64,000 nt of DNA from an uncultured Desulfobacteraceae bacterium (lineage in GTDB: Bacteria; Desulfobacterota; Desulfobacteria; Desulfobacterales; UBA5852). The stretch is from the NCBI GenBank assembly GCA_913060875.1, contig CAJXSL010000003.1, positions 85,045-149,044 of the forward strand, in the 5' to 3' direction. The translations under genes and the position numbers were made by a program. The notes beneath the pieces were generated by a model, which was not told the origin of the DNA, ran no database searches, and worked only from the letters and a program-made list of their open reading frames with translations. Positions 6,736 through 19,030 of this stretch are shown piece after piece. Numbering within the stretch: the stretch's first letter is position 1; each line of letters opens with the position of its first letter.

Positions 6736-8988
6736 CTAGGGATAGGACAGGGGGATGCCGATACTGAGCACCAGGTATACCGTGTAATCCTCGTCCGTAG
6801 TGTCGAAAATTTTATCTTCCGTCCGGCTGTACTGCCCCCTGAGGGACAGGGTCTTCTGCACGCTTTCCAGGAAGGGTGTGGCGATATGCCAGTTGTGCTG
6901 TCCGATCAGGTAGTAGGTCCGGGTGTGGAAGGAATCGTCATCGGCCTGAGTGTCCGTGGCGGACAGGGTCCAGTTCAGGTTGTGGGCGTCGTTGAACATG
7001 CACATGCCGGCCAGGGTGCCCTGCCAGGTCTCGGTGACCACGTCGTCGAAATCCGTCTTGGTGCGGGTGTAGGAGGCCGACGGGGTAAAGGACAACATGT
7101 CGATGGGCTGCCAGCCGGCGTTGAGGCTCATCTGATGGGTCCGGCTGTCGGCATCGGTCGGGGTGTCGTCGTCAAAATTCGTAAAATAATAACTCGGGGA
7201 CAGGTTCCATCTTTCGCGGGCCAGGGAAAACCCGCCCCCGACGGTATCCGTGCGGTTTTCAATGGGGTCGGTGGTATCGGGTTCACGGGAACTGTCCTGC
7301 CAGCCGACATTGCCGCTCAGGAAAAACGTGGGCCAATCCGTGGGGTAACAATTGAAAGACAGACCGGCATTCGTATTGTCGATCACCGGCAACGCATCAT
7401 TTTTTTCGACGTTGTCGCGGGTGTGGATGACGTTGGCGGTAAGGTTGGCGACTGGGAAGGTTTTCGTTCCATACAGCGAATACGCCGCCTGATTGTTCAC
7501 TGCCGTGGGCGTAACCACACTCTGGAATTCTTCGCTCAAATATTTGTAGCCGCCGCCATAGTCATAGCTGCCGGCACGGCCTGAAAAACGCAACAGCCAG
7601 GCATCGTCCCAGTCGGCATCGATATCGTCCGAGACGTCCTCATCGAAATCGCTCATGCCGTACTCGGCCGTCAGGTTCAGCATCTCGTTGAAAAGGCTGC
7701 TGGTGGCCTGGATGCTGTAAATCGTGCCCTCATGCCCGGCGGCCAGGGTGCTGGCGTTGTAATCGTCAGGCTCTTCGTTGTCGCCGGTAACCACGGTGCC
7801 CTTCAGGGTCAGGCGCTTGTCGCTCAGGATATCACTTTCCAGGGAGCCGCCCTCCAGGCGGTTGGCGCTGTCATCAATGCCGATCATGTCGTCGAAGCCG
7901 GTCAGGTAGTCGCTGCTCAGCATGAAACCCTGGGCTGTGAAGCCGGGTGCGTTCAGCGTCACAACGCCCCCCCGTCGGGAAATGGTTTCGCTCACCAGTT
8001 CCGTGCCGGTGACATTGACGTCCCCAAAAGCCAAGTGCTGGTTCCGGTATTCCAATTGCACCAGGTAATTGTTCAGATTGAAATCATCCTCCAGAGGGTC
8101 CGGCCCGTCCTGCGTGATATACCAGGTGTTCGCTTCCAGAGACGCTCGAAAGCCTTCTTTTTCCATGCTGGCAAGGAGGGTCTGGTTGGACTGCACGGTC
8201 CAGTCCGGCTCGGGGCTGTCGTCTTTCTGGTAAACCTCGTGAGCGACTTCCGTATCCACTCGCATCTCCACCGCAACCTGATCGAACAACTCCGAATGGG
8301 GGATGATGAAGGTCCATTCCCGGGGCGGCAGAATATTGCCGGCCGCATCCATGACCTCGAGGGTCACCCGGTGGTTCCCGAACGCGAGATCCCACTCCGG
8401 CGTAAAAGCGATGGCGTCCGTGGCGATAAGGGCGATAGGCGTCACGTCCGTGTCATCCAGCAACAGCCGGACCGAAGCCCACTGGGGCGGCAGCCCGGTG
8501 TCGGCAAACCGGATGGTGACGCTGGGACGACGCTCCCGGATGCGCTGATTATTCATGGCCGGGAAAACGATGCCGGCGGGTCGGGGCCGATCCAAAGCGA
8601 CCTCGATCCGCAGCGGGTTGCGGCGGGGATCGTTTTGGGGCTGGGTAACCCGCCGGCCCTGGCCATCTTCCACCTCAAAAAAGTATTCGATGCCGGGCGG
8701 TAAAACCCAATCCTGTTCGATCATGCCGGAAAATTCAATCTCGGTATCCTGCTTCATGGGCAGGGCGCGGTAGGTGGAAGTACCGATGCTGCGGTAATGC
8801 AGGGTGGCCTGGAGGGGCAGTATAAATTCCTGGGCGCGGATCCGGAAAACAATGCTTTGGCCGGCGAAAACCGGTCCATGGGGGGCAACAAGAACAATGC
8901 GACTTTCCGCCTTTACGGCTGGCGGCGGCAGCAGGAAAAGAAAAACTCCAGGCAAGACCAGGGCAAGCAAGAAGACGCGTCGTATCAT
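6736..8988 (-). CDS. Hypothetical outer-membrane-like protein (signal peptide, Ig-like N-terminal region, acidic beta-rich C-terminal region)
   Basis: 750-aa ORF with a signal peptide (MIRRVFLLALVLPGVFLFLLPPPAVKA). The C-terminal half is rich in alternating aromatic/polar residues and D/N/T/G, as in beta-barrel strands and loops (e.g. YYFTNFDDD, TLSLRGQYSRTED). Confidence 0.6.
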   Translation of the reverse strand: MIRRVFLLALVLPGVFLFLLPPPAVKAESRIVLVAPHGPVFAGQSIVFRIRAQEFILPLQATLHYRSIGTSTYRALPMKQDTEIEFSGMIEQDWVLPPGIEYFFEVEDGQGRRVTQPQNDPRRNPLRIEVALDRPRPAGIVFPAMNNQRIRERRPSVTIRFADTGLPPQWASVRLLLDDTDVTPIALIATDAIAFTPEWDLAFGNHRVTLEVMDAAGNILPPREWTFIIPHSELFDQVAVEMRVDTEVAHEVYQKDDSPEPDWTVQSNQTLLASMEKEGFRASLEANTWYITQDGPDPLEDDFNLNNYLVQLEYRNQHLAFGDVNVTGTELVSETISRRGGVVTLNAPGFTAQGFMLSSDYLTGFDDMIGIDDSANRLEGGSLESDILSDKRLTLKGTVVTGDNEEPDDYNASTLAAGHEGTIYSIQATSSLFNEMLNLTAEYGMSDFDEDVSDDIDADWDDAWLLRFSGRAGSYDYGGGYKYLSEEFQSVVTPTAVNNQAAYSLYGTKTFPVANLTANVIHTRDNVEKNDALPVIDNTNAGLSFNCYPTDWPTFFLSGNVGWQDSSREPDTTDPIENRTDTVGGGFSLARERWNLSPSYYFTNFDDDTPTDADSRTHQMSLNAGWQPIDMLSFTPSASYTRTKTDFDDVVTETWQGTLAGMCMFNDAHNLNWTLSATDTQADDDSFHTRTYYLIGQHNWHIATPFLESVQKTLSLRGQYSRTEDKIFDTTDEDYTVYLVLSIGIPLSYP

Positions 8989-15388: not shown

Positions 15389-15412
15389 AGGGGCACGGCG
15401 CGCCGTGCCCCT
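15389..15412. repeat. 24-nt perfect GC palindrome aggggcacggcgcgccgtgcccct, copy 1 (likely also a bidirectional terminator)
   Basis: Perfect self-complementary sequence between convergent genes, overlapping the radical SAM stop codon by 2 nt. An identical copy is at 19007..19030. Confidence 0.75.
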
Positions 15413-16510
15413 ACCGCAACCACTGGTAGCCCTGCACATCGATATTGCTGAGCCCCAGTTGCCGTGCCCGTTCCACCACCCGCCGATACTCTTTACCGGT
15501 AATCCGCCGGGACAGTTCCCGATAATCAAAGGCCTTATAGGCCGGGTGATACTGGGCCATGATATTGACATAGGTGTCTTTGGGCAGCGTTTCAGCGATC
15601 CAGGCCATGATATCCTCGGAGCCGCTTGTATTGTTGGGCATCACCAGATGCCGGATCATCAGTCCCCGCTGGATCAGCCCCTTTGAATCGGGCCTGGCAA
15701 CCCCGACCTGGCGGTGCATCTCGCGAATGGCTGCGCGCGTCAGGGCGGGATAGCTCTCCGCCCCGGGGGAATATTTCGCCGACAGGTCAGCATCCCAGTA
15801 CTTGAAATCCGGCAGATAGATATCGACGATGCCATCCAGAAGCGCAATGATCTCAACACGCTCCCAGCCGCTGGTGTTGTAGACGATCGGCAGCCGCAAC
15901 CCCTTCGCCGCGGCAATGTCCAGCGCTTTCAGGATGTGGGCGGCATAATGGGTCGGGGTCACGAAATTGAGATTGTGGCACCCGATCTTTTGCAGTTTCA
16001 GCATCATCCGGGCCATATCCGCGATGCTCTTCCGGGCGCCCCGGCCGAGCTGGCTGATTTCCCAGTTCTGGCAGAAGACGCACCGCAAGTTGCAATGGGT
16101 CAGAAAGATGGTTCCCGATCCGCCGCGTCCCACCAGCGGGCGCTCTTCACCGAAATGCGGCTGAAAGGCCGACACCACCAGATCGTCACCCGGCGCCCGG
16201 CAGAAGCCCTCCTCCCCTTCCAGGCGATTCACACCGCAGCTTCGCGGACAGAGCTCGCAGGCCTCCATGAGCGCCCAGAGTTCCTCGGCGCGGCGACCGA
16301 GTTCGCCGGTCCGGTGCCGTTCCAGATAGGCCGGCTCAAAGAACGGCTCTTTGTCGGCGGAGGGCTGATCAGCAGCCGTCGCAGCATGGCTGCGGCCCGC
16401 GGCCAGGACGTTGTCCAGCAGGATGGCCGACAGCCCGACGTTGAAGCACAGTCTGATGGTGCCATTCAGAAAGCATCTTCGGGAACAGAGTCTATCCAAA
16501 AACGGTTTCA
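15411..16510 (-). CDS. Radical SAM protein (PflX/PflA-like activase family) with a twin-arginine-type N-terminal leader
   Basis: Contains CNLRCVFCQN (CX3CX2C). The N-terminus MKPFLDRLCSRRCFLNG plus a hydrophobic stretch plus AGRSHA resembles a Tat signal. I prefer the start at 16510 (RBS gaggagg), 12 nt after the upstream stop. Confidence 0.85.
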
Positions 16511-16522
16511 TCGTTGACCTCC

Positions 16523-18817
16523 TCATGCAAGCCGGTAGGACCGGTCGGCGAGGACGATGACGCTCGTTAATTTCAGCAGCGCCACGGTGATGCCGGTGCC
16601 GACCAGGCCCAGCACCGGCAGGAGCACGACAGCGCCGAAGATGCCGCCCAGCCACCCGCCCAGCAGGTCGGCCGCGTACAGCAGCCCGGCGGACCGGCTT
16701 AAACTGGGGGACGTCTCCAGGTAGATCTTGTTGGCGAGAGGAAATTGAGCGCCGATGAGGATTCCGCTGATAAAGGCAACCACCAGGAAAAGCATCCTGA
16801 GCGCCATGAAACGTCCTGATCCGACCAGGCTTGCATGGGCTGCATCAAACAGAACGGGGCCGGCAAGGGCAAAAGCGATAATGAGGAGGTCGATCTTCAG
16901 GAACCATCGGACATCATGCGTTATGCGATTCAAATTGATCGTCATGAGGGTGGCCCCGCAAGCCGTGCCGGCCATGAACGCCGCCACCAATAGGCCGATC
17001 CATGAAAATACATAGCCATAAATCGATTGAAAGGTAAAGATGATCATGAGGTCGAAGAGCATGCCGGCAAACCCCGTGGTAATGATGGACAGGGGTACGC
17101 CCGTTCCGACAAGATCCGCCTTTAGCGTTCGGAATATGACGTAGACCAGAAGAAGCAAGACGGTCGAAAGCACCATCGCCTTCACGCTGATCATTTCGAA
17201 TGTTTTGAAGATCCCGCAGAGCGACGGGGCAAAGAGGGCGTTCCAGTGGGCGATGCTGTAGAACAACCCCATCGGCCTGAAATCGGAATTGATTTTCCGG
17301 CTGCTATCCTCGATCAACCGCGCGAACCAACCCGGCCAGCCGTCATGCAGCTTGTTTTCGATATGCCAGGGCAGCATCGCTTCCGTCTGGAGTTTCCGCT
17401 GGTCCAGCCGCGCGACAACTTGGTTTCGTCCGATGGTCAGAATGCCGGGCGCAGCCGATGCGATGAACAGGTTCCGGCCGTCGCCCGGAACGATCCGGAT
17501 ATGATCGAAGACTCTTTTCAGGGTGTGAAAGACGCAGCCGTTCAGATCCTTCAATTCATCATTCAGGTAGGTCATGGAGCCGGGCAGCCCGATGACCAGC
17601 AATCCGTCGTCCTGAAGCCTTTGCCGGGCGAGGGCAAAAAACTCCCGGGTAAACAATCGGTTGGTCTGCAAATTCGACGGCGCCATGATCCCGATGAAAA
17701 TCGCATCGAACCGCTCAGGGGAGGTCTCCAGCAGCAGGCGGCCGTCCATCGATTTGACGGTCACCTTGGGATGGGTCAGTTCGGCTTCGGTCAGGGGGGT
17801 CGGATATTTCCGGATGAGGTCCGGCAGCAGGGGGTCGAGTTCGGCATACACGATGGCGGTCACGGAGGGATGTTTCAAGGCGGCATCGATCATACCGCCG
17901 GCCCCGCCGCTCAGGATGAAGAGGTTGGCGGGGTCCGGATGGATCAAAAGGGGCAGGTGAACGAACGCCTCCACAAAGGCCATGTCCGGAACCGGGGTGA
18001 TGATGGTGGGGCTGCCGTCCTGAAAGAAAATATACTGCCCCTGGTTTTCAAGAATACAGATATTGCCGTAGGGGGAGTTCTGGTAATGAACGATCTGCTG
18101 GTTCTTCCATTGCGCCTGAATGGTATTCCGATGCAGCCGGCCCGCCTGGCCGGTCAGCCCGGCCCAGCCCAGGATCACGATCAGCCCGCCCAGAAGCCTT
18201 GCAAGCATCTTCGGATATCGACCGGTTTTCCGGATGGCGGCTGTTAAAACCAGACAGGCTACCACGTTCAGCATGGCGAGTCCCCAGGCGGTCTGAAAGG
18301 CGTCAAGGTAGGGGATCAGCAGATAGGTGCAGGCCAAGCCTCCGATGATGGTGCCCACGGTCTCAAAAATGTAGACCTTGCCCACCGCAGCGGCCTCCCG
18401 GCCTGAAACTCCGGCATAGATCCGGCAGCCGAAGGTAAACAAGGCGCCATGCAGCACGCTGACCGGCAAAAGGATGAGGAAGGCGGCATAGAGCATCGCC
18501 AAGAAGCCGATGCCTTCACCAATGGAAATGCCAAGGGCGTTTTTAAGAAGGCGAATTCCCAGAATCGACAGGAACAGCGACAGGGAAAAAAGGAGGGTGA
18601 TGACGGTAAAGGCTTCGATGCGGTGCTTGATCTTTTCGACGGTGCCGCCGAGGACAAAGCTCCCAAAGGCCTCGAGAACCAGCCAGTTGGCAAGGATGAC
18701 GCCGATGCAAAGCTCGTTGCCGGCAAAAACGATCAGAAATTCCCTCAGAAGGACGATCTCGGCCACCAGGCCGCTCAATCCCATGACCACGATGGCGATG
18801 CGGAACCGAACGTTCAT
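16523..18817 (-). CDS. Fused MFS-like / spermidine synthase-like (aminopropyltransferase fold) polytopic membrane protein
   Basis: 764 aa with about 7 N-terminal TM helices and a central SpeE-like methyltransferase-fold region (LFILSGGAGGMIDAALKHPSVTAIVYAELDP, DAIFIGIMAPS). Further C-terminal TM helices follow. Confidence 0.85.
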   Translation of the reverse strand: MNVRFRIAIVVMGLSGLVAEIVLLREFLIVFAGNELCIGVILANWLVLEAFGSFVLGGTVEKIKHRIEAFTVITLLFSLSLFLSILGIRLLKNALGISIGEGIGFLAMLYAAFLILLPVSVLHGALFTFGCRIYAGVSGREAAAVGKVYIFETVGTIIGGLACTYLLIPYLDAFQTAWGLAMLNVVACLVLTAAIRKTGRYPKMLARLLGGLIVILGWAGLTGQAGRLHRNTIQAQWKNQQIVHYQNSPYGNICILENQGQYIFFQDGSPTIITPVPDMAFVEAFVHLPLLIHPDPANLFILSGGAGGMIDAALKHPSVTAIVYAELDPLLPDLIRKYPTPLTEAELTHPKVTVKSMDGRLLLETSPERFDAIFIGIMAPSNLQTNRLFTREFFALARQRLQDDGLLVIGLPGSMTYLNDELKDLNGCVFHTLKRVFDHIRIVPGDGRNLFIASAAPGILTIGRNQVVARLDQRKLQTEAMLPWHIENKLHDGWPGWFARLIEDSSRKINSDFRPMGLFYSIAHWNALFAPSLCGIFKTFEMISVKAMVLSTVLLLLVYVIFRTLKADLVGTGVPLSIITTGFAGMLFDLMIIFTFQSIYGYVFSWIGLLVAAFMAGTACGATLMTINLNRITHDVRWFLKIDLLIIAFALAGPVLFDAAHASLVGSGRFMALRMLFLVVAFISGILIGAQFPLANKIYLETSPSLSRSAGLLYAADLLGGWLGGIFGAVVLLPVLGLVGTGITVALLKLTSVIVLADRSYRLA
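18691..18733. repeat. 43-bp segment inside the spermidine-synthase-like gene that is exactly duplicated at 23097..23139
   Basis: caaggatgacgccgatgcaaagctcgttgccggcaaaaacgat is read identically at both positions, in the same orientation. Confidence 0.85.
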
Positions 18818-19006
18818 GACGCATAACCCGAACAGCGCTTATGTCCTTGATATTCGGAAACACCAAAACCAAATCCGTAGACGCAAACAGCAGGCAGTGG
18901 ACGAGGAAAAATTAAATTCAGAGGAAGGCGATTCGAGACAATAAATCGATTCTAAAGGAAGGCCCTGCCAAACTCAAATGGTTTTCATCAGGGACAGGAA
19001 AGCCGT

Positions 19007-19030
19007 AGGGGCACGGCGCGCCGTGCCCCT
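19007..19030. repeat. 24-nt perfect GC palindrome, copy 2
   Basis: Identical to 15389..15412. It lies in the divergent intergenic region between 18817 (-) and 19236 (+). Confidence 0.75.

Follow-up and report, generated by a model that had tools for sequence, protein, structure and literature searches.

A radical SAM protein with a Tat-type leader and its co-inherited spermidine-synthase-fold membrane partner

The two-gene locus and its products

The window (the whole 64-kb stretch of DNA analysed) carried a radical SAM (rSAM) gene and the gene of a membrane protein (hereafter the partner) directly upstream of it, both on the minus strand, with the following features:

15390..15411, no strand: perfect 22-nt palindrome GGGGCACGGCGCGCCGTGCCCC, read from the sequence, overlapping the rSAM stop codon
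15411..16511, minus: rSAM gene, PflA/PflX-like, 366 aa (ORF and translation)
16071..16094, minus: CX3CX2C radical SAM cluster motif CNLRCVFC, residues 140-147, read from the sequence
16200..16259, minus: invariant motif C85-x2-C88-x3-C92-x11-C104 (alignments A1 and A3)
16341..16382, minus: variable linker between leader and catalytic domain, residues 44-57 (homologue comparison, AF2)
16383..16511, minus: Tat-type leader, residues 1-43 (RR invariant in A1 and A3)
16518..16522, minus: Shine-Dalgarno GGAGG, read from the sequence, 6 nt upstream of the rSAM ATG
16523..18817, minus: partner gene, 764 aa, 14-TM protein with a central SpeE-fold domain (PF01564, NF037959, AF2)
16547..17185, minus: C-terminal membrane domain, TM8-TM14, residues 545-757 (hydropathy, AF2 helices)
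17393..18106, minus: SpeE-fold domain, residues ~238-475 (alignment to solved SpeE structures, Foldseek)
18152..18817, minus: N-terminal membrane domain, TM1-TM7, residues 1-222 (hydropathy, AF2 helices)
18949..18977, minus: promoter-like site TTGAGT-17-TAGAAT (consensus scan), ~130 nt upstream of the partner start

The rSAM protein matched Pfam Radical_SAM (PF04055) at 43.7 bits (cut-off 29.5), in agreement with the family named in the original prediction, and the CNLRCVFC cluster motif pointed out there was present and invariant in alignments A1 and A3. The ORF had been given as 15411..16510 and as starting 12 nt after the partner stop: the ORF and the close spacing were both found, but the ATG lay at 16511 and the spacer measured 11 nt. 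A mis-called start had also been considered; the Shine-Dalgarno sequence, leader conservation (see below), and an independent JGI gene call of 366 aa on the source contig all agreed on the present one. GGAGG adjoined the TGA stop of the partner gene (16523-16525), which suggests translational coupling of rSAM to partner. More than 8000 rSAM homologues were found. Structurally, the AF2 model was closest to the PFL-activating enzyme 3c8f (E 6e-7, TMt 0.69). Of 84 locus sequences, 83 had all of C85, C88, C92, and C104, the single miss being an offset artefact, and these cysteines are a candidate site for an auxiliary metal or Fe-S cluster. The linker was hypervariable in length and sequence among homologues, T/P/S/K-rich in many of them, and of low pLDDT in the AF2 model; it was directly followed by the conserved start of the catalytic domain (FEPAYL...HRTGEL).

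At the operon ends, the palindrome sat between convergent genes, the minus strand then reading GGTTTTAAG, and it is likely the terminator of the two-gene operon; a simple terminator scan passed over it for lack of a long T-run. The TTGAGT-17-TAGAAT site is a weak promoter candidate, the count of such sites in the consensus scan being equal to the shuffled expectation.

The partner, to which the public protein P0121 was 100% identical, matched Pfam Spermine_synth (PF01564) at residues 282-409 (68.9 bits), the family named for an HMM check in the original prediction, and NF037959 ('fused MFS/spermidine synthase') at 74.1 bits (cut-off 40). Hydropathy and the AF2 model agreed on seven helices at each side of the SpeE-like domain (TM1-TM7: 2-30, 35-62, 66-95, 105-138, 142-170, 173-193, and 200-221), and the proposed embedding of a SpeE-like fold between two membrane domains was thus borne out as 7 TM + SpeE fold + 7 TM. 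TM4-6 were weakly similar to TM12-14 (internal repeat, E = 0.004), and the C-terminal membrane part of the homologue at locus L081 matched Pfam MFS_1 weakly and below its cut-off (21.9 bits); support for these domains as MFS members is weak. Loop K+R counts were 18.9 on one side versus 1.6 on the other across 38 sequences, and 15-33 versus 1-3 across 27 diverse partners; the SpeE-like domain lay on the K/R-poor side and is therefore predicted, by positive-inside counts, to be outside, facing the periplasm. Invariant acidic residues were located inside the TM helices, and these residues as well as the NF037959 match would be in keeping with transport of a cationic solute.

The top Foldseek matches of the partner domain were all SpeE, but its motifs differed from those of SpeE: GGAGG (residues) in place of GGGDGG, and G-I-M-A-P in place of D-S-S-D-P. 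A motif census of 27 loci gave (i) GGGDG Asp replaced by Ala in 25, (ii) the first catalytic Asp of D-S-S-D-P replaced by Gly in 25, and (iii) the ribose Glu kept at every one of the 27 loci and the adenine Asp-Gly kept in 26, the window partner retaining Glu326 and Asp358-Gly359. SpeE equivalog scores were far under cut-offs (159 versus 472, and 86 versus 249 bits), and the match to PRK03612 (polyamine aminopropyltransferase) was partial (159 bits). With the dcSAM-selecting and catalytic aspartates lost and the equivalog cut-offs missed, the partner was rejected as a spermidine synthase. An envelope-associated alkyl/aminopropyl-transfer system had originally been proposed: its envelope part is favored by the partner topology, while aminopropyl transfer appears unlikely from both lost aspartates and the low SpeE scores.

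Gene pairing and leader conservation

The partner was directly beside rSAM in ~30 loci, which formed one clade (clade I), and it was the sole conserved neighbour of rSAM (29 of 83 loci). In nearly all clade-I loci, it was immediately upstream of rSAM with an overlap or a gap of ~11 nt, the genes flanking the pair differing at every locus; reciprocal look-ups from the partner side gave the same pairing. Partner and rSAM identities correlated (r = 0.73; Mantel 0 of 2000), and a leaderless subclade within clade I had lost the partner too. The two genes were hence conserved and inherited together, as originally supposed, but the pairing was not universal: the rSAMs of clade II, a large sister group of Tat-lipoprotein type, had no such neighbour, and two loci (L001 and L003) kept an intact rSAM gene next to a partner remnant. 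With most Tat-leader homologues (clade II) lacking a nearby partner, the need for a dedicated SAM supplier cannot be general. The module was found in >20 phyla, so the search within 'Desulfobacterota' put forward in the original prediction was too narrow.

The rSAM N-terminus MKPFLDRLCSRRCFLNGTIRLCFNVGLSAILLDNVLAAGRSHAAT was composed of an n-region ending S-R-R-C-F-L, h-region LCFNVGLSAILLDNVLAAG, and c-region R-S-H-A|A, and SRRCFL was the sole [STN..]RRx[FLIVM][LIVMF] motif near an ORF start in the 64-kb window (ORFs of at least 100 aa). The h-region was interrupted by Asp, and 12 of the 22 residues that follow RR were uncharged, where a TATFIND-style threshold asks for 13. The Tat-signal model TIGR01409 did not match the window leader and gave 14.8 bits (cut-off 16.7) on the leader of a relative.

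Neither R11 nor R12 varied in alignments A1 and A3, which held 16 and 46 homologues (66-92% identity), and the leader consensus in 120 homologues of the same identity range and from many phyla was [ST]RRxFLK. A census of 85 related loci from >20 phyla gave ~65 leaders with RR and 5 with RK or KR, the remainder being ~9 hydrophobic N-termini without RR and ~6 leaderless proteins. At least 13 uncharged residues within 22 after RR were found in 49 of 63 RR leaders, while part of clade I had Lys inside the h-region and uncharged runs of just 8-10. RR leaders were less hydrophobic in the h-region than non-RR ones (1.77 versus 2.77, p = 2e-6), which matches true Tat versus Sec signals, lower hydrophobicity being a known difference of the former. 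A lipobox at the h-region end was common among related leaders, and clade II displayed textbook Tat-lipoprotein signals, e.g., SRREFIGFCFSLTVSGFGSSFISLCAGC. Every partner-linked rSAM carried a hydrophobic leader; the ~9 homologues with Sec-type or TM-anchor leaders without RR, seven of them partner-linked, kept all cluster cysteines, and we know of no route by which an Fe-S enzyme exported unfolded would obtain its clusters. The wider family (40-52% identity, ~300 aa) had no leader, which makes the leader a derived trait that has been maintained. The Tat-type leader first noticed in the window is a real, translated one, kept across hundreds of homologues, and analysis of the sequences did not place the RR segment as a non-exported cytoplasmic N-terminus.

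Comparison with known systems

The window rSAM resembled PflA and PflX-like proteins (COG1313, KEGG K04070) in its radical SAM partial-barrel fold with CX3CX2C, in its best structural matches (3c8f, 8fo0, and 3cb8), and in the JGI label of its homologues, 'putative pyruvate formate lyase activating enzyme'; relatives numbered ~6200, those at 40-52% identity being mostly ~300 aa. It differed from them in scoring 22 bits against the PflA/GRE-activase cut-off of 232, in the extra invariant N-terminal C-x2-C-x3-C-x11-C, and chiefly in its conserved Tat-type leader and linker, which the cytoplasmic relatives lack; no glycyl-radical enzyme was encoded in the rSAM neighbourhoods examined. Its best NCBIfam match, a weak one, was the PflA-like AmmeMemoRadiSam rSAM (TIGR04337), which shared a similar N-terminal Cys-rich region, and a large subgroup of true TIGR04337 members had Tat, lipobox, or hydrophobic leaders, a parallel to the leader described here; such members sometimes adjoined the window rSAM family (L035, L045, L064, and L081). 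However, the TIGR04337 score of the window rSAM was 33 bits (cut-off 220), AMMECR1 and Memo genes were absent from the neighbourhoods examined, and the conserved partner of its family was the SpeE-like membrane protein.

The partner scored above the cut-off of NF037959, NCBI labels its homologues 'fused MFS/spermidine synthase', and its N-terminal 7 TM plus SpeE fold aligned to positions 24-415 of PRK03612. It differed from both in (i) a second 7-TM bundle, making the SpeE fold an insert between membrane halves, (ii) the absence of catalytic and dcSAM-selecting aspartates, and (iii) co-inheritance with a Tat-leader rSAM gene. A literature search on the fused MFS/spermidine synthase family found no experimental work, and the literature searched had nothing on the two-gene module.

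Tat-exported Fe-S proteins include hydrogenase small subunits, Rieske proteins, HiPIP, and DmsB-type ferredoxins; some are anchored by an uncleaved leader, and Tat lipoproteins exist. They share with the window rSAM the S/T-R-R-x-F-L-K leader and Fe-S clusters, which they acquire before export, but they transfer electrons and need no diffusible cytoplasmic co-substrate, whereas rSAM uses up SAM and depends on a donor of very low potential. Anaerobic sulfatase-maturating enzymes are cytoplasmic rSAMs whose substrate bears the signal peptide. For HxsB/HxsC of the HXS defence system, too, the rSAM stays cytoplasmic and the signal peptide is on the substrate (PMC13128918). In both systems the radical SAM chemistry has its end product in the periplasm, but in the window it is the rSAM itself, not a substrate, that bears the export signal.

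Proposed extracytoplasmic module and rival explanations

The best explanation, a tentative one at a little under an even chance, is an extracytoplasmic rSAM module with an MFS-like partner that brings in SAM or clears away its by-product. The two genes would form a self-contained bicistronic module acting at the outer surface of the cytoplasmic membrane. The PflA-like rSAM would fold and acquire one or more Fe-S clusters while still in the cytoplasm. Its N-terminal twin-arginine leader would then direct the folded protein into the Tat pathway, and afterwards the enzyme would stay membrane-tethered, here by the leader, cleaved or not, and in the many lipobox relatives by a lipid anchor. The partner would be MFS-like, with 6+6 repeat helices plus two extra ones, TM7 and TM8, pushing the spermidine-synthase-fold domain to the same outer side; this domain retains the adenosine-holding residues for SAM-type ligands and lacks those for aminopropyl transfer and for rejection of the SAM carboxylate.

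In a rival reading, the RR leader might be vestigial or repurposed, anchoring rSAM at the inner membrane face, possibly on partner cytoplasmic loops, with all the radical chemistry on the cytoplasmic side, which offers both SAM and reductant. We consider this rather unlikely. In its favor, the closest relatives (40-52% identity) are leaderless and cytoplasmic, the h-region is short with Lys or Asp in part of clade I and is modelled as one long low-confidence helix, ~9 lineages have non-RR hydrophobic N-termini as if membrane attachment alone counted, and known systems such as HXS mature exported proteins in the cytoplasm, ahead of export (PMC13128918). However, a plain anchor needs neither the invariant RR nor the full S/T-R-R-x-F-L-K that is kept, the common lipoboxes at the h-region end make sense solely after translocation, positive n-regions favor N-in, C-out, the RR/non-RR hydrophobicity split fits true Tat and Sec signals, and an inner-face rSAM would be cut off from the only conserved soluble part of the partner, outside. 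Less probable still is an activase with its protein substrate, rSAM installing a radical or covalent modification on the partner, probably on its outward SpeE-like domain, with the partner as effector. The closest structures are indeed PFL-activating enzymes, which act on proteins, the co-inheritance and co-variation are tight and 1:1, and a domain degenerate as SpeE might need a newly installed catalytic group; yet the partner has no glycyl-radical-type motif or GRE fold (Foldseek gave SpeE alone), the PflA and GRE-activase HMMs were far under cut-offs, and the partner cannot be the sole substrate, since clade II, L001, and L003 keep an intact rSAM.

An ordinary membrane-bound spermidine/polyamine synthase beside an unrelated rSAM, with incidental adjacency or a mis-called start, would agree with the 'spermidine synthase' label given to the partner by the sources and with the partial PRK03612 match at 159 bits. 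It is very improbable and already contradicted by the SpeE equivalog scores (159 versus 472, and 86 versus 249) and the loss of both the GGGDG Asp and the catalytic Asp, by an adjacency kept in ~30 loci of different phyla with unrelated flanks and co-varying proteins, and by an rSAM start fixed by Shine-Dalgarno sequence, leader conservation, and independent gene call.

Radical SAM chemistry needs SAM and a low-potential donor, and to our knowledge neither a pool of SAM outside the cytoplasm, nor an exporter of SAM, nor a low-potential donor for rSAM in the periplasm has been described. For the preferred extracytoplasmic module, we infer from sequence the Tat export of rSAM, and likewise what the SpeE-like domain binds, a transport role of the membrane domains, the electron donor, and the substrate: the partner would carry SAM out to rSAM, or bind and return a 5'-deoxyadenosine/MTA-like by-product, and rSAM would act by radical chemistry on a substrate in the envelope or periplasm. 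Radical SAM chemistry, normally cytoplasmic, may thus run outside the cytoplasmic membrane here.

Two-gene unit and its products

The gene of the radical SAM enzyme and that of its SpeE-like membrane partner were co-directional and flanked by plus-strand genes, one convergent and one divergent, with the following features:

16523..18817, minus strand: partner ORF, upstream gene, 764 aa
16518-16522, minus strand: Shine-Dalgarno sequence GGAGG, abutting the partner TGA and 6 nt before the radical SAM ATG
16511 (ATG) to 15411-15413 (stop), minus strand: radical SAM ORF, downstream gene, 366 aa
15390-15411: perfect 22-nt GC-rich palindrome GGGGCACGGCGCGCCGTGCCCC, overlapping the radical SAM stop, between the convergent acyl-CoA ligase and radical SAM genes

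The original prediction had put the radical SAM start at 16510, one base off the ATG at 16511, and 12 nt after the partner stop, where the spacer was 11 nt. Since GGAGG abutted the partner TGA and lay 6 nt ahead of this ATG, the N-terminal leader (residues 1-43) is translated, and translational coupling of the two genes is probable. The 764-aa and 366-aa products were also present in an independent JGI gene call of the source contig. A mis-called start, named beforehand as a possible flaw, was ruled out by GGAGG, conservation of the leader at the protein level, and the same 366-aa JGI call, and the start was thus upheld. A weak promoter-like site was located ~130 nt upstream of the partner gene, and base composition gave no signal of recent transfer (GC 0.57-0.62, same as the flanks).

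The radical SAM enzyme is placed in the radical SAM superfamily, with SAM cleavage predicted, by three features: (i) CX3CX2C motif CNLRCVFC at residues 140-147, with C140, C144, and C147 invariant in homologue alignments of 16 and 46 sequences; (ii) PF04055 (Radical_SAM), the sole and generic domain detected by Pfam, at 43.7 bits versus a gathering score of 29.5; and (iii) a partial TIM barrel in the AlphaFold2 model (pLDDT 75.5), which was closest to the pyruvate formate-lyase activase PFL-AE (3c8f; E 6e-7, TMt 0.69), with viperin, DesII, and SkfB as the next matches. PDB sequence search detected no solved structure. The catalytic domain was very strongly conserved (66-70% identity between phyla), and the N-terminal motif C85-x2-C88-x3-C92-x11-C104 was invariant. 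Membership of a known subfamily was ruled out, every NCBIfam match being far below its cut-off: the glycyl-radical activase models TIGR02493 (PflA; 22.2 versus 231.75 bits) and TIGR02494 (18.7 versus 174.35), the NrdG model, and TIGR04337 (AmmeMemoRadiSam; 33 versus 220, with 348.7 for a true member in locus L081). The enzyme is PflA/PflX-like but, by these models, neither a glycyl-radical-enzyme activase nor an AmmeMemoRadiSam protein.

Variant sequences were seen at the CX3CX2C motif. The homologue in locus L022 (702-707 region; Anaerolineae MAG PWVB01000068) had an in-frame TGA at codon 140, that of the first CX3CX2C cysteine (CTGTCCCAC TGA AATCTACGG); the gene, which encoded a Tat-lipobox leader, was intact elsewhere. 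This TGA may reflect a sequencing error or a pseudogene, or it may encode selenocysteine. Three leaderless relatives, P0261 (787 aa), P0340 (770 aa), and P0268 (517 aa), had an insertion right after CX3CX2C (CNLRCVFC|V...SN|CQNY). Its position and sequence resemble those of an intein, which would be full-size in two of the proteins, where it probably includes a homing-endonuclease region, and a mini-intein in the third.

The partner had been described as a SpeE-like fold between two multi-helix membrane domains, and PF01564, Foldseek, hydropathy, and AlphaFold2 all agreed with this. PF01564 (Spermine_synth) matched aa 282-409 at 68.9 bits versus 22.9; phmmer retrieved 25 solved SpeEs; and the top 50 Foldseek matches were all SpeE (solved spermidine, thermospermine, and polyamine synthases). 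Hydropathy and the AlphaFold2 model (pLDDT 71) gave the layout of seven helices (2-221), SpeE-fold domain (~238-475), and seven helices (545-757), the helical region after the SpeE-fold domain being poorly modelled. NF037959 ('fused MFS/spermidine synthase') matched aa 38-442 at 74.1 bits versus 40, with the C-terminal 7-TM bundle outside the match. TM4-6 and TM12-14 displayed weak similarity (23% identity, E 0.004), and tblastn self-matches occurred in L007 and L016, which suggests a 6+6 repeat to which TM7 and TM8 are added, flanking and carrying the inserted domain. MFS_1 did not match the window partner; its weak score in the divergent L081 homologue (21.9 bits versus 33.4) agrees with such a repeat, and Foldseek showed no MFS fold, the SpeE domain dominating every match.

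A residue census of the partner, based on alignment to solved SpeEs and 27 loci, revealed two sets of positions: (i) the glycine loop, ribose-binding Glu326 (27/27), and adenine-binding Asp358-Gly359 (26/27) were kept; and (ii) the dcSAM-selecting Asp of GGGDGG was lost (GGAGG; Ala in 25/27 loci and invariant in the partner alignment), the first catalytic Asp of D-S-S-D-P was Gly in 25/27, the second was replaced by Ala in the window partner and by Glu in 20/27, and Phe-Val stood in place of the Tyr-His pair close to the amine site. SpeE equivalog models were also below cut-off: TIGR00417 (86.4 versus 249.55), PRK00811 (93.6 versus 260), and PRK03612 (159.5 versus 472). The low equivalog scores and lost catalytic residues ruled out a true spermidine synthase, and they make aminopropyl transfer, one of the functions originally suggested for the pair, unlikely. 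Judged by these residues, the SpeE-like domain is not an aminopropyltransferase, although binding of an adenosyl ligand is plausible. As a member of NF037959, an uncharacterised family, the partner fails the SpeE tests; no experimental basis for the widespread 'fused MFS/spermidine synthase' annotation was found in the literature, and this annotation is put in doubt.

Leader of the radical SAM enzyme and topology of the partner

The leader carried the motif S-R-R-C-F-L-N at residues 10-16. The Tat consensus noticed originally is thus real and shared, with R11 and R12 invariant in the alignments of 16 and 46 sequences and TRRxFLK as the homologue consensus. In all of the best 120 homologues (352-395 aa), a short basic n-region led into [ST]-R-R-x-F-L-K and then into a stretch of moderate hydrophobicity. 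Between this stretch and conserved FEPAYL..HRTGEL lay a linker that varied in length and was often T/P/S/K-rich. In the window, the h-region was followed by A-G-R-S-H-A|A, an AxA-like putative cleavage site, while many relatives closed the leader with an L-x-[GAS]-C lipobox, e.g. SRREFIGFCFSLTVSGFGSSFISLCAGC. The 85 loci with a complete N-terminus were divided into RR (~65), RK/KR (5), strongly hydrophobic non-RR (~9), and leaderless (~6) types.

A TATFIND-style threshold of at least 13 uncharged residues among the 22 following RR was reached by 49/63 RR leaders (20/29 in clade I, the partner-linked clade containing the window, and 29/34 in clade II, its partner-less sister clade), while the window leader had 12, broken by D33; Lys or Asp lay inside the h-region in part of clade I. 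TIGR01409 (Tat-signal HMM) did not match the window leader and gave 14.8 bits versus a cut-off of 16.7 for a relative. The median best 12-mer Kyte-Doolittle hydrophobicity was 1.77 for RR leaders versus 2.77 for non-RR leaders (p = 2e-6). Tat signals are less hydrophobic than Sec signals, and the RR-leader h-region is Tat-like by this sequence measure. The non-RR N-termini (L019, L021, L032, L034, L037, L040, L057, L072, and L076; e.g. MLAKLFIWSFPVMLILISGC and MKKLVGKIISFLFFSVLFANS) resembled a Sec-type signal, lipoprotein signal, or anchor.

Partner topology was read from loop charges. The K+R count averaged 18.9 in N-terminus-side loops versus 1.6 in the opposite short loops among 38 close homologues, and it was 15-33 versus 1-3 in 27 partners of different phyla (one at 32% identity). 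By the positive-inside rule, this bias would place the partner termini in the cytoplasm and the SpeE-like domain outward.

Co-inheritance and distribution

A scan of species-representative genomes yielded 586 relatives of the radical SAM enzyme, and 80 loci from more than 20 phyla were kept: (i) Desulfobacterota, Chloroflexota, Nitrospirota, Myxococcota, Bacteroidota, and Gemmatimonadota; (ii) Acidobacteriota, Spirochaetota, PVC groups, Omnitrophota, Zixibacteria, and others; and (iii) a few archaeal MAGs. The leader-bearing family was found mostly in anoxic-sediment bacteria, with some archaea. When 1.8 billion representatives were searched exhaustively, 6206 relatives were recovered; those at 40-52% identity were mostly ~300 aa with the match beginning at residues 1-20, and were therefore leaderless, so that the leader is a derived, maintained trait in part of a cytoplasmic family. 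The N-terminal extensions of the distant relatives P0357, P0363, and P0384 (44-47% identity) were long, non-hydrophobic, and rich in Arg, Ser, and Pro. They resemble organellar presequences more than they do bacterial signals, and these proteins hence may be eukaryotic members.

The partner was the only recurring neighbour among 83 radical SAM loci (29 loci), and the lack of co-conservation that would have spoken against a pairing was not seen; reductants, cytochromes, Tat genes, AMMECR1/Memo, and glycyl-radical enzymes showed no recurrence around these loci. The partner gene lay directly upstream, overlapping or ~11 nt off, or directly downstream in an Endomicrobiia MAG. Look-ups from three partner homologues found the radical SAM gene adjoining each time, with wholly different flanks. 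A neighbour-joining tree of the radical SAM catalytic domain split the family into clade I, partner-linked with the exceptions L013 and L015, and clade II, without the partner and with the most canonical Tat-lipoprotein leaders. The one clade-I subclade without the leader also lacked the partner (L047; the upstream sequences of L031 and L056 were too short). No leaderless enzyme had a partner, and all partner-linked enzymes had a hydrophobic leader. Pairwise identities of partner and radical SAM enzyme were correlated (r = 0.73; Mantel 0/2000 permutations). The two genes are one inherited unit.

Only 3' remnants of the partner gene were present directly upstream of radical SAM genes in (i) L001 (7732-7989; Zixibacteria CP070813), the last 83 aa at 72% identity, and (ii) L003 (~7159-7989; Fidelibacterota CP070656), aa 489-709. 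Both adjoining enzymes were intact and of the Tat-leader type; the radical SAM gene can evidently outlast partner decay. Flanking genes were unrelated in every locus examined, consistent with movement of the module as a unit. An ISL3-family transposase was located ~1.3 kb upstream of the module in L002 (3087-4394). The neighbourhoods of leaderless P0243 and distant Tat-leader relative P0247 were uninformative.

Locus L081 (2476-7059; Nitrospira MAG VGWX01000028) had the order second radical SAM gene, divergent SpeE-like/MFS gene (32% identity), first radical SAM gene; the second enzyme was a true AmmeMemoRadiSam protein (TIGR04337, 348.7 bits) with its own Tat-lipobox leader (MLTRRTFLKYCLYATATLCPGC...). 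A second, AmmeMemoRadiSam-type enzyme also lay beside the first in L035, L045, and L064. An RR/KR motif near the N-terminus was found in 64 of the 120 closest homologues of the second L081 enzyme, and hydrophobic non-RR N-termini occurred in others. A large AmmeMemoRadiSam subgroup thus has Tat, lipobox, or hydrophobic leaders like those of the window family, so that leader-bearing PflA-like radical SAM enzymes are a broader phenomenon, which seems to have gone unremarked.

Site of action and its meaning

Owing to their need for SAM and a strong reductant, radical SAM enzymes are regarded as confined to the cytoplasm. Two independent lines, the export signal of the radical SAM enzyme and the charge-based topology of the partner, would place the soluble parts of both proteins outside the cytoplasmic membrane, and their co-inheritance argues for joint action on the outer side; an extracytoplasmic radical SAM module is therefore favoured on these sequence features. 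The main rival reading, in which the enzyme is cytoplasmic and merely membrane-tethered, draws on the Lys/Asp residues within the h-region in part of clade I and on the ~9 non-RR, Sec-type homologues, seven of them partner-linked, that keep every cluster cysteine. To our knowledge, there is no route for Fe-S insertion after Sec export, and Sec-type leaders on an Fe-S enzyme do not fit the favoured reading. The rival is further helped by the fact that neither a SAM pool outside the cytoplasm nor a suitable reductant in the periplasm is known to us, but it fits poorly with the invariance of RR, the lipoboxes, and the outward partner domain. Even a cytoplasmic tether would leave a conserved two-gene membrane module.

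In the favoured extracytoplasmic module, the radical SAM enzyme would acquire its clusters in the cytoplasm, cross the membrane in folded form via Tat, and stay tethered there; the MFS-like partner, via its outward adenosyl-binding domain, would supply SAM or else bind 5'-deoxyadenosine or an MTA-like by-product and return it; and the substrate would presumably be an envelope or periplasmic molecule. In clade II, which has no partner, the folded enzyme might take SAM along during export and use it as a cofactor that is regenerated. It is a tentative proposal, somewhat short of an even chance, that this is the first radical SAM family outside the cytoplasm, Tat-exported in folded form and often a lipoprotein, with one clade served by a dedicated MFS-like partner whose outward, catalytically dead SpeE-fold delivers SAM or removes 5'-deoxyadenosine. 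Such a family would require that SAM be supplied outside the cytoplasm and that low-potential electrons reach the periplasm in anaerobes of more than 20 phyla.

Full-text literature searches yielded no description of an exported radical SAM enzyme or of this partner family. In known systems linking such enzymes to the periplasm, e.g. HXS (PMC13128918), the radical SAM enzymes remain cytoplasmic and complete the radical chemistry before their substrate is exported, whereas here the enzyme itself bears the export signal. The chance that radical SAM chemistry has here a new compartment is substantial. If leader-borne export is true, the compartment rule for these enzymes would be overturned by a family that is large, strongly conserved, and spread over more than 20 phyla, and this would point to new SAM and electron routes across the membrane.
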